Below are positions 1 through 39,260 of a stretch of 64,000 bases of DNA, piece after piece. Source of the stretch: Haliotis cracherodii (taxonomy: Eukaryota); assembly GCF_022045235.1 (NCBI RefSeq), contig NW_027266266.1, positions 14,570,001 to 14,634,000 of the forward strand. The letters are read 5' to 3'. Both the position numbers and the translations under genes were made by a program. The number at the start of each line of letters is the position of its first letter. Within the stretch, counting starts at the first letter, position 1. Below the pieces are notes generated by a model. The model searched no databases and had not been told where the DNA came from. It saw only the letters and a list, made by a program, of their open reading frames with translations.

Positions 1-117
1 TTTGTCTCAACGTAATGTCTCGCACAGTACCGTGACCTCCCTACACCCCTATTCTACCCCGGAATCTTAACGGGTCTTGGGATAGGATGACATGCATCAA
101 CCATGTCAGCGAGCCTG

Positions 118-2207
118 GGGCGGTATTCATAAAAAAAACTAAGATTCGTCTTAAGTCTAAACTTAAGTTTTTGAAATCTGACTTAGCTAATCTGAGACTT
201 AAGTTAATATTCATAAAGATGATAAGTCCGAAAAGTCAGTTTCGTAGTACGTACCCGCGTGATCACTAAGGGGAATCCGAGCTATTTTTAAACTTCCAGT
301 GGAACTCTTTAAAACAGAACGGTGTGAAAGCAAATGTACATGTGTTGGAAGGAAGGTTTGGTCCGGGCGTGACATCGGCGAGGCGTCAAGAGGCGTGGCA
401 GGTACAGTGACACGTGTCGTTGTCTGTCACTCAGGCAGTCGTTGTACACAAATGTAGTATTTACACCAGACATGAGTTTTATAAAGTTATATTTTAGCAG
501 TGTACATCTACTAATTTAACTTATCCGTGATATATTGGTACGCCAACCAAGCGACTATAAGTGCATGATTAAGGGACTTGCAATTTATTGTGCGTTGGGG
601 GTGGAGAGGGAGCCTGGTGGAGAAAATAATATTTTTTTTAAATCGATTAAATCGAACATTATTTAAATATTAGTATAACAAATCCGACACACCCCTATAA
701 TAAATCACCTGTCCCTGTAGCCAACTAGCTGATTTTCAGTAACAATATTTTTACTAGTATTTACCACTGCATATAGATTTAATGCAACATTCTACCACTA
801 AACATGAAATCATCACTATGGGTGATTGGTCCTTTTATCAGTGGAATTTAAGTCACCTCTGCTATAGCCATAACATATTCTATTACTATCATAAAATGGG
901 ACATTTGTTATTTCCAATTTGAGGTTTTTTTTACTGACAGTGCCCTTGCAGCAGACTTGGGGCTAAATATGAAAGTATCTTGAAGTGATATCCAAAGTAT
1001 TAACATCTTAATTGTCGGCTTATATATATATTCCAGCTTTATGACGGCGGTCTGATTAAGGGATTTGCAATATATTGTCAAAAGCGATCTGCGTATTTAT
1101 ACTGTGATAATGATGTCGGTTTACGTATTCATTTTCCTTTACTGTTGGTGCCTGGATTTGTACGTGGGTTCCATCGATCACCCTGACAACTCCGGGAAAG
1201 TTCGCAATGTGATAAAAGTTGGTTTGGTGACGCCTAATGTCCCCGAGTTGCAGGGGGAAGCGGACAAACTGTTTCCAATCCTGTCAGATGACAAACTGGT
1301 GATGCACTGATTTTCAACTCTGGAAATGGTGGGCTGGGTGACACCTTGATCATCTGCATTACACAACTGAAACTTTCCCGTTGCAAAGTACCTTAATGTG
1401 ATCAACTCCGGGAAAGTTCGCAATGTGATAAACGTTGGTTTGGTGACGCCTAATGTCCCCGAGTTGCAGGGGGAAGCGGACAAACTGTTTCCCAATCCTG
1501 TCAGATGACAAACTGGTGATGCACTGATTTTCAACTCTGGAAATGGTGGGCTGGGTGACACCTTGATCATCTGCATTACACAACTGAAACTTTCCCGTTG
1601 CAAAGTACCTTAATGTGATCAGAGTCTATTGTATCTCGTCAAGGGCGTGGTTACGGTTGGTTGCAGGCTCCACGTCAGCTGCTATTAAATTAGCTACATA
1701 CCTACTACCATTTCCATCTTAACGGTATCGCCGTCTCAATTCCTCATCGTTGTATTCAACAAGACTTTGTCTTCTTTGATGAAACGAACGACGACCTAGC
1801 ATACGGCAGCAATTTTGTTTACTGATTTAAGTCAAACACCTTGTAGTTAAGCCTACCCCTACCCCTACCCAGTCTTTAGATTTAAGTCAGAAATTGCTAG
1901 AACTTAAGCCTAAGTCGCTTCATGAGTGAGTTAGTGAGTATGGTTTTACGCCGCTTTTAGCAATATTCCAGCAATATCAGGGCGGGGGACACCAGTAATG
2001 GGCTTCACACATTGTACCCATGTCGGGAATCGAACCCGGGTGTTCGGCGTGACGAGCGAACGCTTTAACCACTAGGCTACCCGACCGCCCCCAAGTCGCT
2101 TCATGAATATGATATAAGTCAAATCTTAAAACTTAAAGTCAGAAAAGGTAGTTTTTTTTCAAGACTTAACTTTTTTTCAGACTTAAGTTCTTTTATGAAT
2201 ACCGCCC
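118..2207 (-). mobile_element. PIF/Harbinger element family 1, internally deleted (copy 1)
   Basis: TIR GGGCGGTATTCATAAAA at both ends, CWG-type flanks and many subterminal CTTAAG palindromes. Minus-strand HARBI1-type transposase remnant (TLRYFATG, QPTISR, FPGV.GVIDGTHV). Plus-strand Myb/SANT exon remnant near 324-401. Confidence 0.88.
1188..1620. repeat. ~217-bp tandem duplication inside the Harbinger transposase of copy 1
   Basis: 1188-1403 is repeated at 1404-1620. The segment is single-copy in the 7538-9567 element. Confidence 0.9.
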
Positions 2208-2450
2208 CAGAACACCAAATTATGTATATATTTAAATTTTGTGGAGTATGAACCTATCGATCTATGTGCGCTCAAACAGACAGATGTTGTATGGTTCTAA
2301 TGTGACTGGGCTCTCCTTTTGATTTTGATATTGCTTTGTTTGTTGTTTTACGCCCCATTCAGCAATATTCCAGCTATATGACGGCGGTCTGTAAAATAAT
2401 CGAGACTGGACCAGACAATACAGTGATTAATATCATGAACATCGATCCAC

Positions 2451-7537: not shown

Positions 7538-9567
7538 GGGCGGTATTCATAAAAGAACTTAAGTCTGAAAAAAAGTTAAGTCTTGAAAAGGTAGTTTTTT
7601 TTCAAAACTTAAGTTTTAAGATTTGACTTAGGTCATATTCATGAAGCGACTTGGGGGCGGTCGGGTAGCCTAGTGGTTAAAGCGTTCGCTCGTCACGCCG
7701 AACACCCGGGTTCGATTCCCGACATGGGTACAATGTGTGAAGCCCATTACTGGTGTCCCCCGCCGTGATATTGCTGGAATATTGCTAAAAGCGGCGTAAA
7801 ACCATACTCACTAACTCACTAACTCACTCATGAAGCGACTTAGGCTTAAGTTTTAGCAATTTCTGACTTAAATCTAAAGACTGGGTAGGGGTAGGGGTAG
7901 GCTTAACTACAAGGTGTTTGACTTAAATCAGTAAACAAAATTGCTGCCGTATGCTAGGTCGTCGTTCGTTTCATCAAAGAAGACAAAGTCTTGTTGAATA
8001 CAACGATGAGGAATTGAGACGGCGATACCGTTCAGATGGAAATGGTATTAGGTATGTAGCTAATTTAATAGCAGCTGACGTGGAGCCTGCAACCAACCGT
8101 AACCACGCCCTTGACGAGATACAATAGACTCTGATCACATTAAGGTACTTTGCAACGGGAAAGTTTCAGTTGTGTAATGCAGATGATCAAGGTGTCACCC
8201 AGCCCACCATTTCCAGAGTTGAAAATCAGTGCATCACCAGTTTGTCATCTGACAGGATTGGGAAACAGTTTGTCCGCTTCCCCCTGCAACATTAGGCGTC
8301 ACCAAACCAACTTTTATCACATTGCGAACTTTCCCGGAGTTGTCGGGGTGATCGATGGAACCCACGTACAAATCCAGGCACCAACAGTAAAGGAAAATGA
8401 ATACGTAAACCGACATCATTATCACAGTATAAACACGCAGATCGCTTTTGACAATATATTGCAAATCCCTTAATCAGACCGCCGTCATAAAGCTGGAATA
8501 TATATATAAGCCGACAATTAAGATGTTAATACTTTGGATATCACTTCAAGATACTTTCATATTTAGCCCCAAGTCTGCTGCAAGGGTACTGTCAGTAAAA
8601 AAACCTCAAATTGGAAATAACAAATGTCCCAGTTTTTGATAGTGATAGAATATGTTATGGCTATAGCAGAGGTGACTTAAATTCCACTGATAACAGGACC
8701 AATCACCCATAGTGATGATTTCATGTTTAGTGGTAGAATGTTGCATTAAATCTATATGCAGTGGTAAATACTAGTAAAAATATTGTTACTGAAAAACAGC
8801 TAGTTGGCTACAGGGACAGGTGATTTATTATAGGGGTGTGTGGGATTTGTTATATTAATATTTAAATAATGTTCGATTTAATCGATTTAAAAAATTATTA
8901 TTTTCTCCACCAGGCTCCCTCTCCACCCCAAACGCAAAATAATTGCAAGTCCCTTAATCATGCATTTATAGTCGCTTGATTGGCGTACTTATATATCACG
9001 GATAAGTTAAATTAGTAGATGTACACTGCTAAAATATAACTTTATAAAACTTATGTCTGGTGTATATACTACATTTGTGTACAACGACTGCCTGAGTGAC
9101 AGACAACGACAAGTGTCACTGTTCCTGCCACGCCCGGACAAAACTTACCTTCCAACACATGTACATTTGCTTTCACTACTTCCGTCAACAGTAAAACCTC
9201 CTCTTTCGTCCAGTTAGGCTTCCTCTTCTTCATATCTATCTTTGACATGAGGTTGGCAATGTGGACAAAGTTTCGCTGTGTGTGTCGTCTGCCGTAAATA
9301 GCAACCGGGAAATCCCACCGAAAAAGACATTCACACCGTTTTATTTTAAAGAGTTCCACCGAAAGTTTAAAAATAGCTGGGATTCACCCTAGTGATCACG
9401 CGGGTACGTACTACGAAACTGACTTAGTTTTTCTTTTGAGACTTAGCTAAGTTTCGGACTTAGCATCTTTATGAATATCAACTTAAGTCTCAGACTTAGC
9501 TAAGTCAGATTTCAAAAACTTAAGTTTAGACTTAAGACGAATCTTAGTTCTTTTATGAATACCGCCC
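7538..9567 (+). mobile_element. PIF/Harbinger element family 1 (copy 2, inverted duplicate)
   Basis: Same TIRs. Transposase pseudogene ~7950-8470 (ANFPGVVGVIDGTHVQIQAP...NRHHYHSINTQ). Convergent Myb/SANT exon ~9249-9125 (KRKPNWTKEEVLLLTEVV). Confidence 0.88.
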
Positions 9568-12051
9568 CAGGCTCGCTGACATGGTTGATGCATGTCATCC
9601 TATCCCAAGACCCGTTAATGTTCCGGGGTAGAATAGGGGTGTAGGGAGGTCACGGTACTGTGCGAGACATTACGTTGAGACAAACAACGTCTCGCGGCAA
9701 TAGCGACAGCAGTATTACGTCGGACAGGGCCCGGCTAATCATATGCGGAACACTCTGGTGTAGCTTCGAAAAAAAACATGACATTGTCACAGGCATTAAA
9801 ACACTCGAGTTAGGTGGCATGAATATTAAGTGTTGGCTTCTCAAAGCAGTTACAGTGTTGTCAAGACGTCCTATGATCGATGTCAAACTGGCCCCTACCC
9901 ATTCATAAATATTGAGGTAAGCTTTCACTCTTCTCACGCTTCTGATAGGCTGGTATAATTGTCAGTGTTGATTAGTCAATACTGATCGGTTAATCATCAC
10001 ACGTACAGTGATGATGGCGTTAAAAGCAGTCGTGCTGTGACTTGTTTGATTGAATTTGTTGTTATTTATTGTCAAAAAAGAAAGACGACATTTGGAATTG
10101 CAGTATATTCCCAATTAAGCATCATGCAATGTTATTGCAAATTTCCATTCATCTATTCTGAGCCTTTTTCAAAAATTAAATTTCAGCTCTGACAAGGATT
10201 TGTTTGTTTTTGTGTTGTTTAACGCCGTACTCGGCAATATCCAGCTATATGACGGCGGTCTGTAAATGATCGAGTCTGGACCAGACAATCCAGTGATTGA
10301 TATCATGAACATCGATCCACGCAATTGGGATCGATGACATGCATCAACCAAGTCAGCGAGCCTGACCACCCGATCCCGTTAGTCGCCTTTTACGACAAGC
10401 ATAGTCGCCTTTTAGTTGAAGATACAATGTACATGCTTAATTTATTTATTATATCTTGATGTAGGCATTGTAAGAAATTGACTGTAATTGTTGGTATTTT
10501 AGAAGTATATGTTATATGTTCTCATAAGAGTTATCTATCTTTTGCAGTTGGACCAGCTTTCCATGTTTGAGGGGAGAAAGCATCTCAGACTGTAACTGAT
10601 CTTCAGATTTCTTTGAATATTTTGTCGTCAAGCTATATACATTACCTATGAAAGAACAGCTCTTGTGTATGTATACAGTTGTAAACATATTAAAGTACTG
10701 GTACTGGTTCTGTAAATGATTTCTGTGACAATCATAATACACCATGTACACTGGACACTTGCTGGAATAGGACCTTCTTGTCATCAACATGGTGTTGCAG
10801 AATATTCTGGGACTCGCATATAAAGTCCAGTGTGAATTTAGATACTGACACTAGTGACAGTACATACTGTTGGAAATATTCCAATTCACACTGGCACAGT
10901 AATTTGTTCAGGCCTGGCTTTTCGGAATATTTGCCAAGAATGTTTAATATTTTCAGAGTAATCATGACCTGGTGTTAAAATGTGTGGATATGCCATACAA
11001 TGTCATTAATATTTATGGTATCAGCCATGATACAGAATTGATATTGAATATAATATCATAACAAAGTAATGTATGATAATAGTTTTTCAGTTTAAGGGTC
11101 CAAATCTTCCTAGAAAATACAGCAGATGCTCACCAATAAAAATTAAACATAACAAATGGATTAGCAGTTGTTGCTTTAGAAATGGTTGGTTGGTTATTTA
11201 ACGCCGTACTCAGCAATATTCCAGCTATATGACGGCGGTCTGAAAATAATCGAGTCTGCACCAAACAACCCAGTGATTAATATCATGAGCATCGATCCAC
11301 GCAATTGGGAACGATGACATGCATCAACCAAGTCAGCGAGCTTTAGGAAATTAATTCCTTGTTGAAATATCAACATGTCTTGATTTTGCATCGGCTGTAG
11401 AAGGGTTCAGGGGCGGTCGGGTAGCCTAGTGGTTAAAGCGTTCGCTCGTCACGCCGAAGACCCGGGTTCGATTCCCAACATGGGTACAATGTGTGAAGCC
11501 CATTTCTGGTGTCCCCTGCCGTGATATTGCTGGAATATTGCTAAAAGCGGCGTAAAATAATACTCACTCACTAGAAGGGTTCAGCATGCAAAATACACTG
11601 ATTTATTTGACAATAGCCAAAAAACATTATTCTTGACCAGTAATCTTAGCACAGATTGGTCCTTATGGATACTGGAAAATGTTAAATGTCAGTCACCCCA
11701 TTTGTTTAACTTGACTTTATTGGAAAAAATATTTGAAACACAAAAAATAAATGAAAAACAGGTATAATTGTTTCTGTCTCTGCATCATATGAATGTTGTT
11801 GTACCAAAGTTTGTTCATCAGTGTACACTGAGTGATAAGTTGAATGTAGAAATGTTTTGGTTGGTTGGTTTGTTGTTAAACGCCGCACTCAGCAATATTC
11901 CAGCTATATGACGGCGGTCTGCAAATAATCGAGTCTGGACCAGACAATCCAGTGATTAATATCATGAGCATCAATGCACGCAATAAGCCATTTCATCGAT
12001 TACGTCACAGTTTATGTGCACATACGCGTCACGTGATACACAATAATATTT

Positions 12052-12080
12052 CGAGGGACAAACATTGCAGTTTTTCGCGC
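12052..12080 (+). promoter_or_regulatory. Left subterminal inverted repeat (17 bp) plus E2F-like site of the ISL2EU element
   Basis: CGAGGGACAAACATTGC (12052-12068) is the exact reverse complement of 20893-20909. TTTTCGCGC lies at 12072-12080, about 50 bp upstream of the exonuclease ATG. Confidence 0.6.
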
Positions 12081-12127
12081 GCCTCTATTTGACAGTTGTT
12101 TTGCCGTTTACCCACATCAGTATTAGC

Positions 12128-15100
12128 ATGGCTTCTACCTCGCCTTTGTTTAATGTTTCCCTGCTGCCCGAAGATGTCCCTGGAGCTCAGTTTATTTATC
12201 CAGACGTCGATAGACATTCAGTTGTTCAGCTGAAACGGTGGTTGGAGTGCCGAGGCCTGTCGATGACAGGAACGAAGACCGAACTCGTCGAAAGGTAAGT
12301 CGTCTTATTTATTGGATTTCGTTAAAAATAGTATATGTCAGTTATGAGAATCTATGAAATATACATCTTTGTTAAAGGTATCGTGCCGTGATTGTTATTA
12401 CAATGGCATTAAGGTGCTCTGATGATTAACCCGATGAGCATATAATTTACGAGACAGACGTCATATCAAAATCCAAACCGGAAGTGATTTCCGTAATATT
12501 TGTTTATGCTAATAACGGATAATATTGAAATACATTTTTGTGTTTCAACTCCATAAATGTATGTGGGAATAATAGATTAAATCTGTCGTGCTCTGTCGTA
12601 TTCGTTATCAGAACGACATTTGCCTGGATGAGAGAATTCGGGCACTAAACGTTCGTCTGAAAAAGGGCAATAACTGTTTTCACCATTCTAATCTAACAGC
12701 TTGGGCTATGATACGGTATTTCCTCTATTATTTGTATATATTCATATGATGACCAAAACCTGGTCTGGCAGCCACAATACTATATGTACCTGTGCCAATT
12801 ATTCTATTTACACATGCAAACGTTGTTGTTATTACTATTATTTTCCAGATTATTTAAGGCATAAATAATTCCACACAATTTCCACGTAAAAATAGAATCG
12901 AATTACCAAACACATTTATTGTCATTTTCATCTCTATGTAGTGTTTTTCTTCACACACTTGGGCTAATATGAACAGAAGTATACAATTAACTTAGTTATT
13001 AATATGTATTATTATTACTTCAGTATATAACACCATTGCTTCAGGTCACGAGTAAGAGCCTTTCGGCATTACTATACTCTGCAAAAAAATTGATCTTATT
13101 ATCATGATTACCCCATAACAATGATTAAAGTGAGTGGACTAATATTACTAGTAATAATATAGATGGAAAGTAATCATGCAATCATTTACTAGTAAGCTCA
13201 GTGGTTGGAAACTGAATTCATCTACTCATTGATCAATATCTGAAATTGTAACATAACTGATGTTTACCCATTGTTTTCCCACAGATGTCAAGAGTGTATC
13301 AGAGCTCAGCAGGACACAGACATTTCCATTTCTATTGATAGTGGGAAATGGTACCAAATAAAGGTTCAAGATGTTTTGGCATCTCTTAACAGGTAACTAT
13401 GAGGTTTCAATTCCAGATTTTATCTTTGACCAAATGCAAAGATTGTGTAAGAATGGGTTGAAATATTATTGATGCATTTCCATTTCTGGATTGAAATGGC
13501 ATTGAATTCTGTGAACTTTTGTCAAATGGATTTAATATTGTGAACAACATTTGTAACGGAACATCATTTAAAAAGTACCCAAAAATAAAATGTAAGGGAA
13601 TTTTAATTACTGTTCACAGCATATTTTATTCTGAGAAAATTATATTAATCACTTAAATAATTGAATTAATCAACTCAAAAAAGATTTTTTTACAGGAATC
13701 AGAAAATATTTTTCCATCAGGTTGAAAAAAAAATGTTCGGAATATTCTAATTTTCAAAAGCTTCATGTCTTATGGGTCTTCAATATCCTATGGGTCTTCT
13801 GTTATAAAGTCCCAGGACCCCACACCCCACCCCCAAATTAAATCAAAATAATTGGTCCCTTAAGAAAGATAATACTTGCATCACATATATATGATATTAC
13901 AATGTCACATAGCTCGGTTTTAAGGAAGTTGATTTAACTTGCACCAGGTGCATGTTGACATGAAAACGCAGTTGCACTAAACAAAATCAGTTAGCCCTGG
14001 TCCAATATATATATTAAAGTTGAAACAGGCTGGTCTGCTGCCTGTGTCTTGTTTATTTTTGGATTATTGCTGTGAAACGTGATAGGAACATTTGCACACA
14101 ATCTAGAAGTACCTACAATGTGACAATGTCAAGCCCACGAAATCATAACAAATTACACACAACACAGATTAGTTATGTAGTATGGTAAATAAACTGTACA
14201 GGTATTGAATGTGATCCAAGATTGATGTGTGGATACACAAGGGTTAGACTTATAGACAAACAAATTTGGATATATTTTTTTACATGCATTTAGTGCATTT
14301 TGACATCAATATTAGGTTGCATGTTACAATAATATGTTGCACTGGTGCATGAATTATATAGCCAAATAGTTACCTGTGTCATGATTGTGTATTGCACTAT
14401 TTTCTCTTTGTATTACAGTTCAAGTCTGTGTTCGGCTGTGAGGCAACCTCCCACACCACCTATCACTGGATGGAAGGCCTTCCCTTCTGGCAACATCCCA
14501 CCAACCTTCTCATATGGTGATATATACCAGTATATTATTGCATCAGCCAGACTACAGCCTCTACCACAAGTCACTCCTATCAATGACGGTGATGATGATG
14601 ATGATCAGGACAACACCTTCAGCACTGCAAAGCCAATGAAGAAGGGACGAGCTTTTTTTAAGAGTGGCCACATACAAAATATTCAAACATGTTCTAAAAA
14701 TGAGTATTATTATCTTAAATGTGAATGTCTTCCATCATACAGACTAGGTATGATGTACCATGTACATGTTACTCTTGATAATTTTGCTGTCATCCAGGAT
14801 GCATCATGTGATTGTGTAGGTTCAGCCACTGGACGTTGTAGCCACATTACAGGATTGTTGTTTGTATTAGAGGATTATACTGTCAACTTTGGCTATACAG
14901 CACCCTCATGTACTTCTTTCTCTTGTTCCTGGAATAAACCCCGAAACAAAACTAGAAACCCACAACCTGCCCACACTTTGCAGTACAGCAAAAAGAGAGC
15001 TCCAAACCGTGTTATTGATCATGACCCATGTCCTGTTGCAGATCAGTCTCACAGAGCTGACAGTAGTTTTGCAACTGCTTTCATTTCTTCTGCACTAGCC

Positions 15101-15958
15101 TTGGATACAAATACTTCATGGCAGAGTATCCTAGAAATTACTTATGATGATTATGAATTGTCTAATGACTTGAAGTTACATCTCATGGATAAATGTGATG
15201 TTTTCATTGAAAATGTGAAAGAAAGTATTTCAGAGTATGGGGTTGGCCCTTGTGAAGTACCTGGTACTGTGGGTCAAGCAATTTCTGATCAGTGGCATAA
15301 TGCCAGGTGGTACAGAGTGACAGCATCTATTTGTAAAGACTGTTCTATGGTATCCACAGATCGAGGTAGATATCGCTTGTTATCATCACATGTATGGGGT
15401 ATTGATTGTTTTAATACAGTTGACATGAGGTATGGATCACATAATGAAAAAAGAGCCTTTGAAGACTATTCATTAAAATATGTAGAAACATTTACCTGCC
15501 TTGCAAGTGGTTTCTGGATAAATTCAAAGTATCCTGAACTAGGATGTAGCCCTGATGGCATCTTACAGTCTCTCAGTACAGATGTGGCTGATGGTGTTTT
15601 AGAAATTAAGTGCCCATCAGTACTTGAAAACATTAATCCAACTGAGGCAAAAGAAAAACTCACAAAGAAGCAATACTATTCATTTTGCAGCACTTTCGAA
15701 AATGGCAGACTGAAATTGAAAAGGAATCATAAATATTATTTCCAATGTCAAATGCAAATGGCCATCTGTGAAAAATATTTTTGTGACTTTGTAATATGGT
15801 CGCCTGAGGGTATGTCAGTAGAAAGAATACCCTTCAATAAATTATTTTGGGAACAGACATACCGCCTCTTGAAAATATTTTACAAAAATATTCTAGTTCC
15901 TGAGATATTTGAAATGAGAGTGCCAAGAAAGCTACTTCCCTTTGATCTGTCTAAGTAA
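12128..15958 (+). CDS. SAP + SWIM zinc finger + YqaJ/lambda-type PD-(D/E)xK exonuclease, ~604 aa, 3 exons (12128-12294, 13285-13392, 14419-15958)
   Basis: Exon 1 is SAP-like (VVQLKRWLECRGLSMTGTKTELVER) and ends AG|GTAAGT. Exon 2 (ccacag|ATGT...AACAG|gtaact) and exon 3 (ttacag|TTCA) join in phase 2 without stops. SWIM CDC-x6-CSH. Nuclease motifs WHNARWYRVTAS, MRYGSHNE, GCSPDG, LEIKCP, YYFQCQMQM. Confidence 0.88.
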
Positions 15959-21132: not shown

Positions 21133-22056
21133 CCCTTTGGCCCCATAAATCAGGCAGCTACTGTCCAAGTCCCTCACACGACTGACCGCTAAATCGGGCG
21201 CCTTCAACTTCCTTTCTCGTGTGTAATCTCGTTCTAAAAATAGAAACGAGATCTGGACGTGATAATACGTCTATTCATTTTATTTTCCGCGCGAACATCG
21301 AGAGTACATGTAGGTAACGTGTTTTCGCGACAGGTAAATTTTCTTGTTTGAATCGATAAATTCCTTGCGTAATGGCGGCCAACTACGATTCGGATAGCGA
21401 TCAGATGTCTAATGACGACCTTTTTGGGAATGATAATGTTTTTGATATGATTAATTTACACGAGGTGGAAAGGGAATTTCGCGATCTTTTGGGGGATTCG
21501 GACGACGACGAAGATTTTGATGGTTTTGACCAGGTGTACTCCCCTTTGAACTTTCAAGAATGGGAAAGGTAGAGGGACTACTAAGGTGGAGACATGAGGA
21601 GACTCGGCCCAAGAATATTGACACGGTGAGTGAAGATAGTCGTATTACAATGATTCTTTGTTTGAAAAGATTATCAGGGCAGCGAATGACAATGCAGCCT
21701 ACAAGAGAACGAACGATCCCAACAACAACAGAGGTGAGTGGTATGACGTATCTCTTGTTGAAATCAAGGCTTTATATGGCATTTTGCTGTACATGGATAT
21801 CGTCAAACTTGACAGGGATCAAATGTATTGGCATTCTGGCATTAAATATCCTTTGTTGAAATATCCAGTCACTGACATTATGTCCAGAGATAGATTCACT
21901 CAGGTAAAAAGGTACCTGCAATTCAGTACTGATATCCTAATGCTAATGACAAACTGCACAAGGTACGCTACATGCTTGATCATCTCAGGTCTTCTTTTCA
22001 GGAACACTACAGTCTCCAACAGCAAGTGTCAGTGGACGAGGCAATGATTCCCTTCA
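21133..22056 (+). mobile_element. piggyBac 5' fragment (copy A)
   Basis: TTAA|CCCTTTGGCCCC terminus. Acidic N-terminus from ATG 21372. IMSRDRF and VSVDEAMIPF motifs. Frameshifted and truncated. Confidence 0.88.
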
Positions 22057-23987: not shown

Positions 23988-26002
23988 TCAGCACCAATAC
24001 TGAACCTTATTAGTGTGGTATTTTTGGAAACAATTCTCCTTTAATGAACAGCAAAGTGGAACGTCACACTTGGAGCACTTCATAGACGTCTTTGACTCCT
24101 TGCATTTGTAAAAGGCGACTAACGGGATCGGGTGGTCAGGCTCGCTGACTTGGTTGATGCATCGATGCTCATGATATTAATCAATGGATTGTCTGGTCCA
24201 GACTCGATTATTCACAAACCGCCGTCATATAGCTGGAATATTGCTGAGTGCGGCGTCTTTGTACGGCATGCCTGGATGGGTTGTCTGAAACACTTGATGT
24301 TTTTCAGCAGAAACGCGACACGCACAGTCACTACACTACGTACTGCTGTAACAGGCCAGTGGTTGTTGCAGTCCAGACGCTGTTCCTCGTAGTCACCATG
24401 TCGCTGTGAAGTGTTCCTGTTGGTGATGTTGCAGATGGGCCAGGTCAAGTCTGAAGGACAAGAGATGTCTCTTGCGGCTTCCCTGGGGGTTATGGTCGAT
24501 GATTGTACCTTCAAGAAGAAATGCATTATCAATGGCAATCTCTCTTTGCTTGATCTCAACACGCGTGTACCACTTCATAGATTTTTTACTTTTGTTCACA
24601 CGCATGTTCTGATCAAGCTTATCTACACCCCCATGTACTTCCCATACTCTACAACCGCTGGTGTTACTGCAAGTGCCTCCCGAGTTCCATCCTTCTTCCT
24701 CCGGGGGAGGGAATGCTGTAGATAGACCAGCCTGTTGGCCTTCCACATAGTAACGACGAAGTCTCCACAGACAACCCAGTCGTTGGATCCACGGTGGAGG
24801 CGAGTAGCATCTCTTCCTGTTGGTAGCTGTGCCGTCGGGTAGCCTTTCCTGTTGATCCTGTACGTCCCCTTCCACAAAAGATAATCAGCAAGTGTAGGAC
24901 TTGTATAGAAATTATCTGTAAAAATGATGTGACCTTGGCCAAGAATTTCCTTTCAAAGCCCAAGCTGTCGATCGACTACTGTTCCAATACTTCCCTGCAT
25001 AAACTTCAAAGTTGGAACAGTAGCCGGTGTCAGGACCCACAACAAACTTTACCTGCTGTACTGTTTAACACTAAGCCTGCCATTGAAGGGAATCATTGCC
25101 TCGTCCAGTGACACTTGCTGTTGGAGACTGTAGTGTTCCTGAAAAGAAGACCTGAGATGATCAAGCATGTTGCGTACCTTGTGCAGTTTGTCATTAGCAT
25201 TAGCATATCAATACTGAATTGCAGGTACCTTTTTACCTGAATGAATCTATCTCTGGACATAATGTCAAGGACTGGAAATTTCAACAAAGGATTCTTAATG
25301 CCAGAATGCCAATACATTTGATCCCTGTCAAGTTTGACGATATCCACGTACACCAAAATGCCATATAAAGCCTTGATTTCAACAAGAGATACGTCATACC
25401 ACTCACCTTTGTTGTTGTTGGGATCGTTCGTTCTCTTGAAGGCTGCATTGTCATTCGCTGCCCTGATAATCTTTTCAAACAAAGAATCATTGTAATACGA
25501 CTATCTTCACTCACCGTGTCAATATTCTTGGGCCGAGTCTCCTCATGTCTCCACCTTTGTAGTCCCTCTACCTTTCCCATTCTTGAAAGTTCAATGGGGA
25601 GTACACCTCGTCAAAATCATCAAAATCTTCGTCGTCGTCCAAATCCCCCAAAAGATCGCGAAATTCCCTTTCCCCTTCGCGTAAATTAATCATATCAAAA
25701 ATATTATCATTCCCAAAAGGTCGTCATCAGACATCTGATCGCTATCCGAATCGTAGTTGGCCGCCATTACGCAAGGAATTTATCGATTCAAACAAGAAAA
25801 TTTACCTGTCGCGAAAACACGTTACCTACATGTACTCTCGATGTTCTCGAAATAGAATGAATAGACGTATTATCACGTCCAGATCTCGTTTCTATTTTTA
25901 GAACGAGATTACACACGAGAAAGGAAGTAGAAGGCGCCCGATTTAGCGGTCAGTCGTGTGAGGGACTTGGACAGTAGCTGCCTGAATTGTGGGGCCAAAG
26001 GG
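23988..26002 (-). mobile_element. piggyBac (PGBD4-like) pseudo-element (copy B)
   Basis: GGG|TTAA end at 26002, ATG 25767, DEAMIPF, FTDNFY, GVDKLDQ, cysteine-rich tail. Multiple indels. Confidence 0.88.
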
Positions 26003-26650
26003 TTAACCTCTTTCGACAAGCAAAGTTGCCTTTAACGGCAATCATGGGCTGCTGAAGACCTAGTCTACCGTAAAAGGCGATTATGCTTGTCGTAACTAAC
26101 CCCTTTACTAACGGAATCGGGTGGTCAGGCTCGCTGACTTGGTAAAATGCATGTCATCGATCCCAATTGCGCGGAGACCCGTGAAGATCCGGGCTAGAAT
26201 AGGTCTTCAGCAACCCATGCTTGTCGTAAAAGGCGACTAACGGGATCGGGTGGTCAGGCTCGCTGACTTGGTTGATGCATGTCATCGATCCCATTTGAGT
26301 GGATCGATAATCATGATATAAATCACTGGATTGTCTGGTCAACACTCGATTATTTAACAGACCGCCGTCATATAGCTTGATTTTGCCGAGTCCGGCGTTA
26401 AACAACAAACAAACAAACCAAACCAATTGCGTGGATCGGTGCTTATGATATCAATGACCTGATTGTCTGGTCCAGATTCGACTATTTACAGTCCGCCGTC
26501 ATATAGCTGGAATATTGCTGAACGCGGCGTTAAACAAAAACATTAATCTAGTGATGTGGCATTTCCAAAATCTCCGCCTCTACAGTGCTGACTGACAACT
26601 TCAGTATTTGAGCCCGGTAATATAGTCAATTTAATTTGGTTGCCACAAAG

Positions 26651-27369: not shown

Positions 27370-28563
27370 ACCTTGCAAGCCTTGTGCGGGGAAAGACAGA
27401 TTTCCCCATGTAATACATGAAACCTCCGTTTCAACTGCCCCATGCTCCTCTCAACACAGCTGGTTTTCTTATGTCTGTTTCTTTGTTGTTTGTCCACAAT
27501 GTTCCAACAATAAGACGGCTGTCTGTTGTAAATAATCGAGTCTGGACCGGACAATCCAGTGATTAATATCAGAGCCTTGATCCACGCACTTGGATTCGAT
27601 AACATGCATTAACCAAGTCAGCGAACGGTCAACTTACAGGAAGCCGGTTCCCCTCAAACATCAGACATAAACCCACTTGTGGTCAAAATGCGGGACTCTT
27701 GTGTTGCGCCAGGCCAACGTGCAACAATGTCGATGATGCGATCGTCGCTGTCAGACACTGTGTATTTACACTATTATGGTTAATGTGCCTGTGACTAATT
27801 CATTCTCATTAACTGATTGGGCCTGAATCAGATTGCCGTCAATTACCCCAACAATACCGTGGAGGTTGGCTGTCTGATAGAAAGGATGTTGATGGCGTCT
27901 TATTTCTTGGGGTTGCACAGAAAAGGTGACAAATCTACAAAGGATACGGTGACTTGTGAGGCTGTCAAGCGTTTGGAAGATAACCCTTGAGATAGTGGGT
28001 TTGGCTCAGCCAATGGTCAACACCATTACACATTTGATAAATGCCAATAGCAAGATAACCCAAAGTGAGAAGCACCTTGGAGTAACGCAGGACACGGCAC
28101 AACTCCTGCTCAAGTAGGTTGGTTGGTTTGTTGTTTAACGCCGTATTCAGCAATATTCCAGCTATATGACGGCGGTCTGACGAGTCTGGACCAGACAATC
28201 CAGTGATTGTCTGCTCAAGTATATCACAAATGTTAACAACACTGTTCCTGTCAAATCTGTAGCGCTGTATCAGATCATTATCATCTAATGAATGTAGTAC
28301 ATCTCTTAAAGCTTCTTTCATTAAATAGTCTTGGATTACGTCTGGCGGCCATTTTGTTTCACGTGATAAGAAGATATGATTTAAGCCTAGCAAGGTGAGT
28401 CTTAAAAGTTCAGTAAAAAAATAAAACAAAACTTAAGTCTAAGTCTATTGATAAATATGACCTTAGTTAATCTACTTAACTTAAGTCAATAAAACAACAA
28501 AACCAAGTTTATTAACTGACGTAAGTTTTATTTATGACTTAAGTTGTTTGATAAATACGACCC
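27370..28563 (-). mobile_element. PIF/Harbinger family 2 remnant (one terminus + transposase pseudogene)
   Basis: Terminus ...GATAAATACGACCC|CTG with ACTTAAGT subterminal motifs. ATG 28352, IQRYRFDR, GIVGVIDG, IVARWPG. Confidence 0.82.
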
Positions 28564-29682
28564 CTGACCACTCGATGCTCTTACGACGGCACAGGTAATC
28601 CCAGGTGTTACTGACTTTGTTTTCTATACTGATGTCACATATTACTTATCTTATGTAAAATCGTTAACACGGGTAAAAACACAAATATAAGATATTTTTG
28701 GTTCTTTTTATCTGGATATGAAACAAAAATTAAGTAATTAAATAATTAAATAGTAATTTTTCACATAACCTGAACATTGAAACACAGCTACTACAAGAAA
28801 GATCACAGATTGAGCTGAAAAGACGGAAAGATTGTAAGTCCTACAAATAAACAAGTTGTGATAACATATTTACGATACATTGCTATTTACAATTGCATAA
28901 TAAATTAAATTAGTACTTAATAATTCAATTAATAAATAATTATTAAAGTTACTAAAATTTAAACTTGGATGAAAAAACCCAAGAAAACAAACATGAATAT
29001 GGAAATACATTTTATTCAAATTGTGCAAAATACAAGGACATACGACAAACCGACGGCCAACTACAATTTGGATTGCGATCGGAAAAACAAATAAAATAGT
29101 TGTAGTCAAGAGTGGCCTCCCTTTTCAAATTGTAATCTGCAAGATATAAGCTTGAAAAACCCACATATATATGTCAAAAGTTACTTTTTAAGTTATTCAT
29201 AACTAGAATAATTTAATGTTTGTGTTTGAAGGATAATTATTGTTAACTACTACTGAGAAGAAATAAGTTACCAATACTTTTATTGCTAAAATTTACTTGT
29301 CAAAAATTTACATCTTTATAAAAAACGGCTTACATGTGCTGAAAAGAAGTTCTATTAGACCAAAAAATTACATTTCATTTACCTATGATGCATGGAATTA
29401 GGTAATTACAGTACAATATATTACATTGAGATGCAGACAGATGTGTGATTACGGAGTATATTCATGGAACTACAACCTGAAAGGAAAACTTATCACAGTA
29501 TAACAAACTCTAAAATGTAAACAAGCAAAACGTGGAAAATAGATTTGTGTATATAAAAGAGGTAATAAATATATTTACAAATATAAGAAGTGGAAATAAA
29601 TATTTTTACAATAATAAAAAGTGGTAATAAATATAGTTACATTAATAACAAATGTTTGTGGCAAAGGACTTCGTTGAAATAT

Positions 29683-30392
29683 TCAGCACCAATACTGGAC
29701 CTTAGTGTGGTACTCTTGGAAACAATTCTTCTTAGATGAACAGCAAAGTGGAACGTCACACTTGGAGCACTTCATAGACGTCTTTGACCTCTTGCATGGG
29801 TTGTCTTTGTACAAACCATGCTTGTCGTAAAAGGCGACTAACGGGATCGGGTGGTCAGGCTCGCTGACTTGGTTGATGCATGTCATCGATCCCAATTGCG
29901 TGGATCGATGCTCATGATGTCAATCACTGGATTGTCTGGTCCAGACTCGTTTATTTACAGACCGCCGTCATATAGCTATAATATTGCTAATTGCGGCGTT
30001 AAACAACATACCAAACAACCAAATCTCTGGTCTTTATACGGCACTCCGGTATGGGTTGTCTGAAACACTTGATGTTTTTCAGCACGAACGCGACACGCAC
30101 AGTCACTACTTACTGCTGCAACAGGCCAGTGGTTGTTGCAGTCCAGACGCTGTTCCTCGTGGTCACTGTGAAGTGTTCCTGATGGTGATGTTGCCGATGA
30201 GCTGATGGGCCAGGTCAAGTCTGAAGGACAGGAGATGTCTCTTGCGGCTTCCCTGGGGGTTGTGGTCGATGATCGTACCTTCAAGAAGAAATGCATTATA
30301 AATGGCAATCTCTCTTTGCTGTATCTCAACACGCGTGTACCACTTCATAGATTTTTTACTTTTGTTCACACCCATGTTCTGATCAAGCTTGT

Positions 30393-30440
<48 letters not shown>

Positions 30441-31926
30441 CATGTACTTCCCGTACTCTGCCAGCGCCGCTCTTAATGCAAGTTCCATCCTTCTTCCTCC
30501 TCTTTGTCGTCAGTCCTTCCTCCAGGGGAAATCCAGTAGATGGAAAGTTGACCGGCCTGTTGGCCTTCCACATCATAGCAACGAAGTCTCCCCGGGCAAA
30601 CCAGTCGATGGATCCACGGTGGAGGCGAGTAGCATCTCTTCCTGTTGGTAGCTGTGCCGTCGGGTAGCCTTTCCTGTTGATCCGAACAGTGCCGCACAGG
30701 TACATCCCCTTCGAAATAAGATAATCAGCAAGTGTAGAAGTTATCTGTAAAGATGATGTGACCTTTGCAAAGAATTTCCTTACAAAGGCTAACAACAACC
30801 TGTCCTGAAAGCCGAAGCTGTCGATTGACTACTGTTCCATTCTTCCCTGCATCAACTTCAAAGTTGGAACAGTAGCCGGTGACAGAATCGGCCAGGACCC
30901 ACCACACCTTCACACCAAACGTTACCGGCTGTACTGTTTAATACTAAGCCTGCCTCGTCCACTGACACTTGCTGATGGAGACTGTAGTGTTCCTGAAAAG
31001 AAGACTTGAGATGATCAAGACTGTAGCGTACCTTTTGCAGTTGTCATTAGCATTAGGATTATCAGTACTGAAATACAGGTACCTTTTTACCTGAGTGAAT
31101 CTATCTCTGGACATAATGTCAGGGACTGGAAATTTCAACAAAGGATATTTAATGCCAGAATGTCAATACATTTCATCTCTGTTAAGTTTGACGATATCCA
31201 TGTACAGCAAAATGTCATAAAAAGCCTTGATTTCAACAAGAGATAGGTCATACCACTCACCTTTGTTGTTGTTGGGATCGTTCGTTCTCTTGTAGGCTGC
31301 ATTGTCATTCGTTGCCCTGATAATCTTTTCAAACACAGAATCATTGTAATACGACTATCTTCACTCACCGTGTCAATATTCTTGGGCCGAGTCTCCTCTG
31401 CAAAAAAACCCATGTCTCCACCTTTGTAGTCCCTCTGCCACTCCCATTCTTGAAAGTTCAGAGGGGAGTACACCTCGTCAAAACCATCAAAATCATAGTC
31501 GTCGGAATCCCCCAAAAGATCGCGAAATTCCCTCTCCCCTTCGCGTAAATTAATCATATCAAAAACATTATCATTCCCGAAAAGGTCGTTATCAGACATC
31601 TGATCGCTATCCGAATAGCAGTTGGCCGCCATTACGCAAGGAATTTATCGATTCAAACAAGAAAATGTACCTGTCGCGAAAACACGTTATACCTACTCTC
31701 GAAGTTCGCGCGGAAAATAAAATGGAATGACGTATCATCACGTCTAGATCTCGTTTCTATTTTTAGAACGATATTACACACGGGAAAGGAAGTAGAATGC
31801 CGCCCGATTTAGCGGTCAGTCGTGTGAGGGACTTTGACAGTAGCTGCATGCCTGATTTATCGGGCAGCAGTGGACTGGGCTGTGATGTATGCTGCCCGAT
31901 AAAACGGGCAAGTCGGGGCCAAAGGG
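29683..31926 (-). mobile_element. piggyBac pseudo-element (copy C, intact subterminal palindrome)
   Basis: GGG|TTAA at 31926-30. TTATCGGGCAGCA...TGCTGCCCGATAA subterminal repeat. GHIIFTDNFYT, GTVRINRKG, CSKCDVPLC...CFQEYH. Confidence 0.88.
30394..30437. repeat. (CA)n microsatellite inside piggyBac copy C
   Basis: About 22 CA units. Further microsatellites at ~33219-33248 (CA), ~22254-22275 (TA) and ~23853-23878 (TA), plus a G-run at 52759-52790. Confidence 0.95.
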
Positions 31927-32221: not shown

Positions 32222-33219
32222 AGGGCCTGTAAGTCTCGCGAAGCGCTACTTCCGGTACCAGCATTTCCGGTGACATGCCAATATTCATGAACTAGTTCTG
32301 CTTTCGAAATGCGCGACCGCCAAAGCTAACTCTGTAGACGGGACCAAGTATACTACCATACTTGGTTGTCACCGCTGTTGACAGTCGTAAAAGTTTACTT
32401 ATTTCGGTATAATATGATCGGTTATTTGTCATTCCTGCAAGGTGTATTGGTTCCTGATTGACAACTGACAACCATAGGACCGTTCGTAAAGGTATGTGTT
32501 CTTTTCTTTACCTTTAAAATAATTTTAACAACCAGTGCGGTACTATCGTTCAGACGCGTATTTATAGTCTCAGTGGACAGTGTTTTATGATTACGGAGGA
32601 TGTGTTACATGTTTCTCTGATGTTAGATTATTTATGAAGATGTAACTACTAATAGGTAGGCCACATTACCCAACTTACCATGGTATTCTGGTATCTGACA
32701 GCATGAGCAGTGTCAAGGAAGCCGTGCCTTTGACAGTTTGAATAGGCATTAAATTATTAGGCAAGATTTGGAGGATGAAATTTGGAATATTTATGCTATG
32801 AACATATTTTTAAACGTGAAATATATTTAAGGATATTCTATTAATTTATTTTTTTAGTATTTATAGTATTTAATAAACCAGTCATATGTTTGAAACTTAA
32901 ATTTAAAAAATGCATTATATTTGGTCATATATATATATATTTGCTCTGTCACTCACCTTTAATAAAGTAAATAATTTTCCATTATGGCATTTGTTAGCTT
33001 TGATGAGAAACTTATTTTTAAAATATGTTTTGTATGAAGGAAGGTTTATGCAATGTATAAAGCATATGCATAAATTGTTGTGTAATTATCAAAATGAGTT
33101 TGTATATTTAATGTGAATAGTTATAATAACATGCAGAGTTATTATTATTTGCACTTTGGTAGGCTTGAACTAAAGTTTTACTCTCATCTAAATGTAAAGG
33201 ATGACAAAAATTAAGGAAG

Positions 33220-33251
<32 letters not shown>

Positions 33252-36200
33252 TCAAAAATGGTTTATTGAAATAATTAAAAGTTTAATAACCTATTTTGGA
33301 TGAATGATTTTCATAGCCCTGCCAATATATATATTAATCCCAAAAATAATTACGCTAATTAAATAAATGTCCTCTCAACATGCACCAAAAAAGAATATAT
33401 GTGAAACTTCTATTATAAACATAAACAAAATTATAGTGTCACAAATCACTCAATAGTTAATCAAATAACCATGAAACCAAATCAATACATTATATCGATG
33501 ACTATAATTTAGTATTTGAAATAAATATATCAAACCCTAACCTGTAAAACACACATATCCCTTGATTTCGAATTCCATTCGAATATACAATATTATGGGC
33601 ATAATGAAATTGTGTCAGTCAAAATTTTTTTTTTTATTTTACTTGCGAAATTCAGTTGAAGACCTCTTAGTCTTAGGTGGTTTCAGGTTTGTGCAACAAG
33701 TAACTGCTGTTAGTATTCCATATGAATATTCACAGTGATATACCTATTTTTCAAATTGTGTAAACATTATTTGTTAGTCCGGTGATGAATAGAACTGGTG
33801 TTAGACAATGGTAATTTTACACTGTGTATGTACTTGATGTCTAGCTCTATGTTGTTGCAGAACATGAATGTTTTTTTTCTTGGTTATGCAGGAGTGAATT
33901 TCTGCTGTACAGCAACCAAAAGTCGAAGCAGCATCCAGCACACAGCAAATTCAAGTCAGAAGTGGCCAAAATGCAAGACAAATACACTGAATTGTGTAGG
34001 CGATCACCAATGACATGTCCTACATTAAGAAAGATTCTTACTATTATATGAAGTGTAATGTTATTCTGAGGGAAGAAATAAAAGTGTTACACCTTGTCAG
34101 CAATATAATTGTTATGACACTGCAGACTGTGATTGATAGCAGGATTAATTGTGATGAACGGTAGGGTTTTTTAAATTAATATTTCTGGTTGTGAGGCTCA
34201 ATTGAACCAAGTAAAGAAAATTGCCACAAGTCCAAAACATTAATACATTTACCTTATCACTCAATCAACACTGATGAACACAAATTTAGTGCAACCATAT
34301 TGACTTGATGCAGAGATAGAAACAATTGCACCTATTTTTCATATATTTGTGTATTTCAAATATTCTGCTCAAAATCCAAGTCAAACAAATGAGGTAACTG
34401 ACATTTCACATTTTTCGCTATCCATTTGGACCAATCTGTTTTAAGATCTGGTCAAGAAATGTCAATGTTTATTGGCTATTGTTCTATGAATCAGTGTAAT
34501 TTGCATGCTGGACCCTAAAACAGCGATGCAAAAACAAGACATGTTGATATTTCAACAAAGAATTCATTTCACAAAGCAACAACTGCCATGCCATTGGTTA
34601 AGTTAAATTTTCATTGGTAAGCATCTGTTGTATTTTTTTGGAAACTCTTGACCCATAAACATTCCATGTGCATTGTTATGATATTATATTCAATATCAAA
34701 TCAGTATCATGGCTGATACCAGAAATATTAAAAAGACTTTTTTTGTATGGCATTATCCCAGACAAAAAACAATAAATAAGCTTCAGATCTATTCAGTAAT
34801 TTTATTCCAAGGTCACAAGTATTAAACATTCATGGCAAATATTCCCAAATGCCAAACCTGAACAAATAAATGTGCCAGCATGCACTGTTACTGGTGTCAG
34901 TATCTAGATTCACACTGGACTGGAGAGTCCCAAGATGTTCTGCAACACCATGTTGATGACAAGTAGGTCCTGTTCCAGCAAGTGTCCAGTGTATATGGTG
35001 TATTCTGATGTTCACAGACATCATTTACAGAACCAGTACTTCAGATAGAACTTTAATATGTTTACATCTGTATACACAACAAGAGTTGTTCTTTCATAGG
35101 CAATGCAGTGCTTAACCACAAAATATTCCCAAAAATATGTTATTGTCCGAGATGCTCTTGAGGTGCAGTTATGTTTGGCATCAAGGTAATTCTGGTGATC
35201 CATATGCATCTACTCGTGGGTCAGATGAGGAAATCTTTCTCCCCTCAAACATGGAAATATGGCCCAACTGCAAAAGATAAATAACACTAATGAGATCATA
35301 TAATATATACTTCTAAAATACCAGTCATTTCTTACAATGCCCACATCAAGATATACTTAATAAATTAAGCATGTACATTGTACCTTCAACTGAATATGAT
35401 AAACAAATGCTAAATGGGGTTGTAATGATCAAGTCTATTCACATCATACAGAATACATTTAAGTGAGGTCACTTTTCAGAGATCTTAAAAACAAACACTG
35501 CAAGGATTTAATCATCATTATTTACAAATTAGATTAATATTTTTTTTTGTGTGAATAAAACCTGATTTTTTAGTGCACATAACATTATCATCGTGATATT
35601 GGCACATATCCTTATTTATTTACACAGGCCTCCCCATAAGTCTCCTTGCACAACATTAAGTATTGACAAAATTTGCATTGCCAACATGCACATGATAGGC
35701 CTTCTTTAAATATGACTATAGTTTGTGTCATCTCCCCTGGACCTACAAATATAATTTTGTGACGTTCCTTATCAGAGCTGAACATTTATTATTGGAAAAG
35801 GTTAAGGATAGATGTAATGAAAATTTGCCATAACATTGTATGGTGCATAAACCGAGAGCATATTGAAATACCTTCAGAACGAATGTTTATGCTCATTTTA
35901 CAACGCCAACACCATTGTACGTGTGATGATGAACCATGAACCGACCAGTATTGCCTTATCAACACTGACAATTATACCAACTTATCAGAAGTGTGCAAAA
36001 AACTTACCTCAATATTTATGAATGGGTAGCGGCCAGTTTCACATCGACCATAGGACGTCTTGACAACACTGCAACTGCTTTGACAAGCCAACACTTGCTA
36101 TTCATGTTCCCCATCTCCAGTGTTTTAATGCCTGTGACAATGTCATGTTTTTCTAAGTTACACCTGCGTGTTCCAAATATGATTCGCCGGGCCCTGTCCG

Positions 36201-36301
36201 ACGTAACACTGCTGTCGCCATTGCCGCGAGACGTTGTTTGTCACCGGAAGTACTAAATAACGTTATGTCTCGCGTAGTCCCGTGACCTACTTACACCCCC
36301 T
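32222..36301. mobile_element. Non-autonomous TIR element with AT TSD (ISL2EU-like), 4,080 bp
   Basis: Termini AGGGCCTGTAAGT / ACTTACACCCCCT (11/13 inverted match). AT at 32220-21 and 36302-03. The empty site restores SINE-B gacaagtATagtcgcc. No transposase recognised. Confidence 0.8.
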
Positions 36302-36948
36302 ATAGTCGCCTTTTTACGGATGACATTTCATAATGAACATTTTGAGGGACAGATGTTACAGTTTTTGTTCGTTGTTCATATCTCTTATAACAACAGTAAT
36401 TACATGTATATTGTACTCTTGATTTTCCACCATTGATATAGCTACCAAGAAAGCTAATTTTTTTTATACCTATTCATGAATTAATGTGGCCTCAATCTAT
36501 CAATAAATATTTTTTAATGTCTTTTTTTCCGGCATAATATAGTGTATGAATAGGTTTAATTTTACTGCCATGATCAATGAGTCATAATATCTCATTTTGA
36601 GGAAAAAGGGGAATTACTTGAAATCTTGCCAATTCCATCTTTTTGATGAAGAGCCTATTACATTGTAATACTTCATGGCTAAATGGACCCGTGAAGATTG
36701 GGGGATGGAATAGGTCTTCAGCAACCCATGCTTGCCGTAAAAGGCGACTATGCTTGTCGTAAACAGCGACTAACGGGATCGGGTGGTCAGGCTCGCTGAC
36801 TTGGTTGATGCATGTCATCGATCCAAATTGCGTTGATCGATCCGCATGATATCAATCTGGATTGTCTGGTCCAGACTCGATTAATTACAGACCGCCGTCA
36901 TATAGCTGGAATATTGCTGAGTGCGGCGTTAAACAACAAACAAACAAA

Positions 36949-38160
36949 CCTTGCAAGCCTTGTGCGGGGAAAGTCAGATTTCCCCATGTAATACATGAAA
37001 CCTCCGTTTCAACTGCCCAAAGCCCCTCTCAACAGAACTCCTTGTTTTCTTATGTCTTTTTCTTTGTTGTGTAACGCCGCACTCCGCAATGTTCCAACAA
37101 TAAGACGGCGGTCTGTAAATAATCTAGTCTGGACCTGACAATCTAGTGATTAATATCATGAGCCTCGATCCACGCACTTGGATTCGATAACATGCATCAA
37201 CCAAGTCAGCGAACGGTCAACTTACAGGAAGCCGGTTCCCCTCAAACATCCGACATAACCCACTCGTGGTCAAAATGCGGGACTCTTGTGTTGCGCCAGG
37301 CCAACGTGCAACAATGTCGATGATGCGATCGTCGCTGTCAAATGCTGTGTCTTTACACTTTTATGGTAATAATGCCTGTGACTAATTCATTCTCATTAAC
37401 TGATGGGGCCTGAATCTGAATGCCGTCAATTACCCCAACAATACCGTGGAGGTTGGCTGTCTGATAGAAACGACGTTGATGGCGTCTTATTTCTTGGGGT
37501 TGCACAGAAAAGGTGACAAATCTACAAAGGATACGGTGCCTTGTGAGGCTGTCAAGTGTTTGGAAGATAACCCTTGAGATAGTGGGTTGGCTTAGCCAAT
37601 GGTCATCACCATTACACATTTGTGAATTTTGCCAGTAGCAAGATAACCCAAAGTGACAGGCACCTTGGGGTAACGCAGCACCCGCACAACTCTGCTGTGT
37701 TACTGGACACAACTCCTGCTCAAGTAGGTTGGTTGGTTTGTTGTTTAACGCCGCACTCAGCAATATTCCAGCTACCGTACATGACAGCGGTCTGTAAATA
37801 ATCGAGTCTGCTCAAGAATATCACAAATGTGAACAACCCTGTTCCTGTCAAATCTGTAGCGCTGTATCAGATCATAATCATCTAATGAATGTTGTACATC
37901 TCTTAAAGCTTCTTTCATTAAATATTCTTGGATTACGTCTGGCGGCCATTTTGTTTCACGTGATAAAAAATATATGATTTAAGTCTAGCAAGGTGAGTCT
38001 TAAAAGTTCAGTAAAAAAAATAACAAAACTTAAGTCTAAGTCTATTGATAAATATGACCTTAGTTTTTCTACTAAACTTAAGTCAATAAAACAACTAAAC
38101 TAAGTTTATTAACTGACGTAAGTTTTATTTATAACTTAAGTTGTTTGATAAATACGACCC
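36949..38160 (-). mobile_element. PIF/Harbinger family 2 remnant (duplicate)
   Basis: Same terminus and flank as 28563. ATG 37949, SQPTISRV, GIVGVIDG.IQAP. Confidence 0.82.
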
Positions 38161-39260
38161 CTGACCACTCGATGCTCTTACGACGGCACAGGTAATCCCA
38201 GGTGTTACTGACTTTTGTTTTCTATACACAAATTACTTATCTTAGGTAGACTCGTTAACACAGGTAAAAACACAAATATAAGATATTTTTGGTTCTTTTT
38301 ATCTGGATATGAAACAAAAATTAAGTATTTAAATAATTAAATAGTAATTTTCCCATGACTTGAACATTAAACCACAGCTACTACAAGAAAGATCACAGAT
38401 TGAGCTGAAAGGATTGTAAGTCCTACAAATATACAAGTTGTGAAAAAATATTTACGATACATGGCTATTTACACTTGCATAATAAATTAAATTAGTACTT
38501 AATAATTCAATTAATAGATAAGTATTAGTTACGAAAATTTAAGTTTGAATGAAAAAAACACAAGAAAACAAACATGAATATGGAAATACATTTTATTCAA
38601 ATTGTGCAAAATACAAGGACATACGACAAACCGACGGCCAACTACAATTTGGATTGCAATCAGAAAAAAAAGAAAAAAGTTGTAGCCAAGAGTTGCCTCC
38701 CTTTTCAAATTGTAATCTGCAAGATATAAGCTTGAAAAACACATATATATGTCAAAAGTTACTTTGAATGTTTGTGTTTGAAGGATAATTATTATGTAAA
38801 CTACTACTGAGAAGAAATAAGTTACCAATACTTTTATTGCTAAAATGTACTTGTCAAACATTTACATCTTTATGAAAAACGGCTTACATGTGCTGAAAAG
38901 AAGTTCTATTACACAAAAGAAATACATTTAATTTACCTATGATGCATGGGATTAGGTAATTACATTACAATATATTACATTGAGTTGCAGACAGATGTGT
39001 GATTACGGAGTATATTCATGGAACTACAACCTGAAAGGAAAACGTATCACAGTATAACAAACTCTAAAATTTAAACAAGCAAAACGTAATAAATAAAAGT
39101 ATCACTAAAGTGGAAAATAGATTTATGTATATGAAAGAGGTAATAAATATATTTACAAATATAAGAAGTGGAAATAAATACTTTTACAATTATAGAAAGT
39201 GGTAATAAATATAGTTACATTATTTACAAATGTTTGTGGCAAAGGACTTCGTTGAAATAA

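Follow-up and report, generated by a model that had tools for sequence, protein, structure and literature searches.

DNA transposons nested in copies of one short interspersed element family at a Haliotis cracherodii locus

In the human genome, 35,846 of 36,478 type pairs of nested transposable elements match chance expectation, and old short interspersed nuclear elements (SINEs) tend to serve as targets less often than expected (Levy, Schwartz and Ast 2010, PMC2836564). The hotspots described there, such as the two MIR3 positions occupied by MER1 hAT elements, or Alu within Alu, resemble the case reported below in that transposons sit in older repeats, one position is reused and integration motifs are offered as the explanation. 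Dada and Pokey (PMC8869645) are likewise DNA transposons residing in multicopy sequence, a possible safe site, with family-specific targets among multicopy genes. Here we describe a stretch of 64,000 nucleotides from Haliotis cracherodii (NCBI RefSeq assembly GCF_022045235.1, contig NW_027266266.1, positions 14,570,001 to 14,634,000 of the forward strand; the whole stretch is hereafter the window) in which, unlike the human pattern, four DNA-transposon families meet in one SINE family, termed SINE-B, at one locus only. It also differs from Dada, described as having one sequence-defined site per family in many copies, since five sites are used here with at most two events each. A literature search, with most subscription journals outside its coverage, returned no case in which DNA transposons of several superfamilies target a single SINE.

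The nested cluster of DNA transposons in SINE-B copies is real. Ten junctions, which an earlier note on this DNA had placed in SINE-B, were all confirmed at the coordinates given, and its count of about six independent events holds as well, because three junctions lie in segmental duplicates and one piggyBac junction was copied into a further SINE-B by SINE-guided template switching. Two of these events are clean (ISL2EU and an unclassified element named AT-element), two have SINE-B on both sides (piggyBac and Harbinger-2), one is precise at one end (Harbinger-1) and one is ambiguous (a relative of AT-element). The three superfamilies announced in that note shrink to two under the scheme of Han et al. 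(2015, PMC4482050), namely PHIS, with ISL2EU and the NuwaI-type Harbingers, and piggyBac, with one unclassified family besides. On balance, we favor an origin of the cluster in local SINE density and short target motifs, with duplication and SINE-guided copying raising the number of junctions. Feature coordinates are collected in Table 1, and positions within SINE-B refer to the full-length reference copy listed there.

ISL2EU and AT-element both restore clean empty sites; the note had counted two such cases. ISL2EU has a perfect 13-bp terminal inverted repeat (TIR) with AT on both sides, and its excision in silico yields an uninterrupted SINE-B. Like the ISL2EU members of PHIS, which use an A/AT/T target and encode a THAP/HTH/DDE transposase plus YqaJ (PMC4482050), it lies at such a target with an AT duplication and carries both open reading frames (ORFs; PF05485, PF13613, PF13359 and PF09588). 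It departs from the usual ISL2EU in its length of 9 kb and in a TIR beginning with AA, the published definition giving GG as "usually" found. This is a young element, whose YqaJ and transposase frames are long and open and probably interrupted by introns. The transposase frame (17983-19134) shares 99% identity with an H. cracherodii protein and 88% with an H. rubra protein, and the 90% cluster of the former has 14 members, of which 8 are H. cracherodii and 6 are H. rufescens sequences; that two abalone species carry near-identical proteins at several loci suggests recent activity. On a contig of another individual, three flank bases beyond the right end of ISL2EU match the window and the next 87 letters do not, so that this copy is not at the present SINE site. 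A suspected miniature inverted-repeat transposable element (MITE) within ISL2EU (13900-14439, raised read depth) was dismissed for want of clear TIRs.

Removal of AT-element also gives back SINE-B. Its TIR matches at 11 of 13 positions, and a TATA duplication with GGG ends fits equally well as AT. The 38 short frames of the AT family gave no Pfam family above the cut-off, and one frame lacked a homologue. The relative of AT-element presents a single end at SINE-B reference 25-26, the other end being missing, and this junction is a weak point, made ambiguous by a 5-bp microhomology to the SINE head. A SINE-mediated deletion is a plausible origin for this junction only; for the precise junctions with TIR and duplication we rejected it. 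We also rejected 22654-22960 as a continuation of the relative, as it gave no alignment. The SINE-B that hosts piggyBac inserted at the tail end of the host SINE-B of AT-element (32009-32022), resulting in tandem SINEs.

The four Harbinger TIRs, starting at 118, 9567, 28563 and 38160, all adjoin the same CAG of SINE-B (reference 103-105). Both Harbingers, here in decayed form, resemble NuwaI elements, described with a CWG target, GGG ends and DDE plus Myb/SANT proteins (PMC4482050). Harbinger-1 has CWG flanks, GGG termini and DDE and Myb/SANT ORFs, and Harbinger-2 is assigned to NuwaI by one end and by its protein likeness to Harbinger-1 (51-54% identity in pieces). The identical 3-bp duplication on both sides that belongs to NuwaI is found in neither. 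Harbinger-1 retains both TIRs, but its flanks differ (CTG versus CAG) and the inner one lies outside SINE-B, a weak point against which the note had already cautioned. Harbinger-2 has lost its left end, and to its left there is SINE-B too, stopping 3 bp before the site. A scan of sequence collections with the Harbinger TIR returned 69 stretches, in bacterial records only, which we regard as chance matches.

The third identified family encodes a DDE_Tnp_1_7 domain (PF13843) and has a TTAA-flanked end starting with CCC, as befits piggyBac. Its three TTAA junctions (21129, 26003 and 31927) have one common flank with 93-97% identity. At 23138 SINE-B resumes with CTAA (85-88), at the very point where the TTAA flank breaks off, bar three missing SINE bases, and the two halves of the host SINE-B are enclosed by a 13/14 duplication at 22952 and 32009. 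The second junction of piggyBac is thus probably at 23139, in the same SINE-B, which points to a probable insertion at a non-canonical CTAA site; piggyBac is known to use CTAA/TTAG as a minor target (PMC3983033). This is not certain because the candidate right TIR, flanked by CTAA and not TTAA, has only 7 of 12 bases in common with the left TIR. In a comparison of 7420-23600 with a contig set and three raw-read runs, SINE reads dominated the loose ends and joints. There 23139-23600 shows a read depth of 10-25 and, in two runs, fixed differences, as in a multicopy family, and is possibly the 3' terminal region of piggyBac. The variant 'ctcttacgac', tried as a marker of one SINE copy, was discarded, being the majority form in the reads.

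Duplication accounts for most of the surplus junctions. The block 1-2450 repeats 7295-9684 in inverted orientation, with Harbinger-1 copies that are 97% identical, and 27370-29812 is a copy of 36948-39390, with Harbinger-2 copies that are 95% identical. In addition, a 1-kb block from 25083-26069 was copied into the host SINE of ISL2EU, entering at a 13-bp repeat internal to SINE-B and leaving at a 3-bp microhomology. Junction 21129 is part of this block, copied by SINE-guided template switching, and no separate insertion. SINE-B contains or adjoins the block boundaries at 2451, 21066, 22058, 22405-22653, 26069, 36950 and 41229. In Alu/Alu-mediated rearrangements, SINE copies reportedly bound duplicated or templated blocks, as they do here; the present case differs in that the SINE is molluscan and the copied blocks bear DNA-transposon ends.

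Table 1. Transposons, SINE-B copies and copied blocks of the cluster
Feature	Coordinates	Strand	Remarks
ISL2EU transposon	11985..20995	YqaJ gene +, THAP/HTH/DDE transposase -	13-bp TIR, AT duplication; SINE-B reference 142-143
Single full-length SINE-B hosting ISL2EU and the 1-kb copied block	11857..22122	-	12/13 duplication on flanks
AT-element, unclassified TIR element	32222..36301		in SINE-B, reference 65-66
AT-element relative	9635..22404		89% identity at shared end; nested SINEs and ISL2EU inside
Harbinger-1	7538..9567		NuwaI-type: GGG ends, CWG flanks, DDE_Tnp_4, Myb/SANT; 9567 end at SINE-B reference 103-105
Harbinger-1 duplicate	118..2207		in inverted block 1-2450
Harbinger-2 remnant	27627..28563		same SINE-B site as Harbinger-1, SINE-B on both sides, left TIR lost
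Harbinger-2 duplicate	37214..38160		
piggyBac copy	23139..26002	-	candidate CTAA end to TTAA end; SINE-B reference 85-88
piggyBac duplicate copy	28588..31926	-	TTAA flank retains intact SINE-B head and flanking duplication
3' part of the host SINE-B of piggyBac	22963..23138	-	
Templated 1-kb insertion (SINE head piece, TTAA, piggyBac 5' part)	21066..22057	+	source 25083-26069
Full-length SINE-B, coordinate reference	36686..36950	+	likely Haliotis LP-SINE: head like that of a long interspersed nuclear element (LINE), no tRNA head
SINE-B inside SINE-B	26176..26421	+	12/13 duplication; in the hairpin loop that ISL2EU entered as well

SINE-B itself probably corresponds to the LP-SINE of Haliotis (Hmi_LP/Hdi_LP; Matetovici et al. 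2016, PMC4758252), with which it shares a length of about 255 bp, variable duplications and terminal short repeats. LP-SINE has no tRNA head, and SINE-B appears to lack one too, ARAGORN calling a tRNA only in the other SINE. As for the LINE-derived head of about 70 bp, SINE-B shares with the LINE-headed SINE copies in the supplement of that study a 16-nt head motif, a likeness to these supplement rows only; the paper names AATATA where SINE-B has AATATT. An Rfam search gave no match, and SINE-B motifs had no match in viral contigs or prokaryote genomes, while one short metagenome contig held a diverged, uninterrupted copy. SINE-B has entered SINE-B twice (26176-26421; 48-76 / 9609-9637), at a hairpin loop near reference 138-150 that is the same loop as for ISL2EU. 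Two further SINE families (1922-2091, 42093-42358 and others) carry the 3' tail of SINE-B, and none of their approximately 12 insertions lies in SINE-B.

The locus is dense in SINE-B, as the earlier note had warned. SINE-B makes up 11.2% of 1-41.4 kb, versus 3.0% of the remaining window, and removal of the DNA-transposon bodies leaves a 9.2-kb backbone in which its share is 30.8% and which has 35% of its CWG sites within SINE-B. The genome share of SINE-B, estimated from read depth relative to ISL2EU, is only about 0.2-3%, a range that hinges on an uncertain ISL2EU copy number and on a genome size of about 1.3 Gb, so that the locus is strongly enriched. Locally, the DNA-transposon hits in SINE-B exceed what a flat share of 11% would give (all five hits by chance, p = 1.6e-5), it being understood that this and the following p values apply, uncorrected, to one locus picked post hoc from a very large scan.

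Under the reading we favor, five or six DNA transposons would have entered SINE-B copies while these constituted a large share of the local target, perhaps 14-31% at the time of the insertions, and SINE-B would have supplied the short motif of each family. ISL2EU is at its published A/AT/T target and both Harbingers are at the published CWG. Duplication and SINE-guided copying would then have multiplied the junctions, and recombination through SINE-B homology may preferentially gather and keep transposon ends embedded in SINE-B, of which the two one-ended junctions may be relics. Local SINE density (31% of the backbone), target motifs, duplication and SINE-guided copying may thus underlie much of the pattern, and a modest general nesting bias together with the post hoc choice of the window could account for the remaining excess. 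Junctions are moreover easier to place where the flank is a known repeat. Several counts sit uneasily with this account. Five out of five remains improbable at a 31% share (p = 2.9e-3) and with roughly assumed, age-graded shares (p ~4e-4). Retro-insertions of the same region struck SINE-B in 2 of 23 cases, whereas DNA transposons did so in 5 of 6 (Fisher p = 0.001; retro-insertions counted by hand, excluding piece 78-117, which has lost both flanks). This control is biased because most retro-insertions postdate the transposon bodies, by which the SINE share had already been lowered. All five sites fall at reference 25-143, within the 5' 145 bp that represent 45% of local SINE-B bases (p ~0.02). 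SINE-B offers only 5.6% of the local AATT sites, yet 10 of 16 CAATTG sites; piggyBac apparently chose CTAA despite 325 TTAA sites in 1-41.4 kb; and, of the 10 CWG sites that the reference copy holds, both Harbinger families occupy the same one. In favor of the account, the five DNA-transposon candidates at 43-63 kb all lie outside SINE-B, but they test the role of density weakly because SINE-B reaches only 3% there.

These counts are what gives some room to a different explanation, tentative as it is, in which SINE-B is a preferred target of several transposases throughout the genome, its 5' half, a LINE-derived putative promoter, being open or protein-marked chromatin in the germline. The contrast between DNA transposons and retro-insertions, the confinement of every site to the 5' 145 bp, the non-canonical piggyBac site and the retention of the SINE head in the hosts of ISL2EU, piggyBac and the AT-element relative would all fit, as would the promoter role suggested for the LP head (PMC4758252) and the preference of piggyBac for open chromatin (PMC3983033). 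That promoter role is, however, only a proposal in PMC4758252, old human SINEs are under-represented as targets (PMC2836564), the five candidates elsewhere in the window avoid SINE-B, the ISL2EU contig of the other individual has a different flank, and six events at a single locus selected post hoc are a narrow base. The full form of this explanation, namely a promoter-bearing 5' half acting as a genome-wide landing pad for ISL2EU, NuwaI, piggyBac and the unclassified family, with a pull that takes piggyBac even to a non-canonical site and with SINE-to-SINE recombination spreading the nested ends to other SINE copies, seems to us doubtful. An extended target preference could instead be confined to the NuwaI-type Harbinger lineage and match SINE-B 103-105, the other insertions being local chance. 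Two related families at the same CWG of 10 speak for it, as does the non-SINE flank of Harbinger-1, which beyond CWG agrees with the SINE half-site in 7 of 10 bases, a score attained by only 12 of 3477 non-SINE CWG half-sites; this is a hint that the lineage prefers a longer target, and motif-driven SINE hotspots are on record with MER1 in MIR3 (PMC2836564). Nonetheless, three half-sites are all there is, neither Harbinger has a clean second flank, and the flanks of Harbinger-1 differ and therefore involve rearrangement, which renders this confined version unlikely.

The earlier note had further seen AT sites in hairpin loops and proposed structured DNA as the attractant. Three AT sites are indeed predicted to be unpaired in DNA folds (0.65-0.86), and SINE-B itself inserted twice at the ISL2EU loop; however, this is no enrichment, as 10-16 of the 24 AT dinucleotides across SINE-B, i.e. 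about half, are predicted unpaired anyway. Moreover, the Harbinger site is predicted to be paired within a stem (unpaired 0.0-0.2) and the piggyBac site is intermediate, and the folding z-scores are only -1.5 and -2.3. Stems of 8 bp with loops of 9-11 nt are unlikely to extrude from duplex DNA. Attraction of transposases by a hairpin or cruciform is hence unsupported and, in our view, very improbable.

As a case of nested transposons the locus is resolved in detail, and it offers a probable natural insertion of piggyBac at a non-canonical site together with a SINE-templated copy of a transposon end. Should the bias extend to the whole genome, several transposase families would have a safe site in common in a single SINE, the reverse of the human pattern, and this would point to a role of LINE-headed SINEs in chromatin or as promoters.

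The window contains several other elements. Decayed frames at 2452-3660, which begin at a SINE-B breakpoint, resemble by eye those of a tyrosine-recombinase (DIRS- or Crypton-like) element and have no relevant Pfam match. LINE 3' fragments with RNase H (PF00075) are found in opposite orientations at 4192-5409 and 6523-7237. Three fold-back palindromic MITE-like elements (43081-43312, 48223-48424 and 61983-62048) are all outside SINE-B. Diverged copies of one repeat lie at 45248-45539 and 53098-53429, with one end that by eye is Tc1/mariner-like (TA then CAGT). A Mutator-like transposase fragment (PF20700) accompanied by a divergent second frame occupies 61387-62936, and a tandem array of about six 91-bp units spans 54416-54965.

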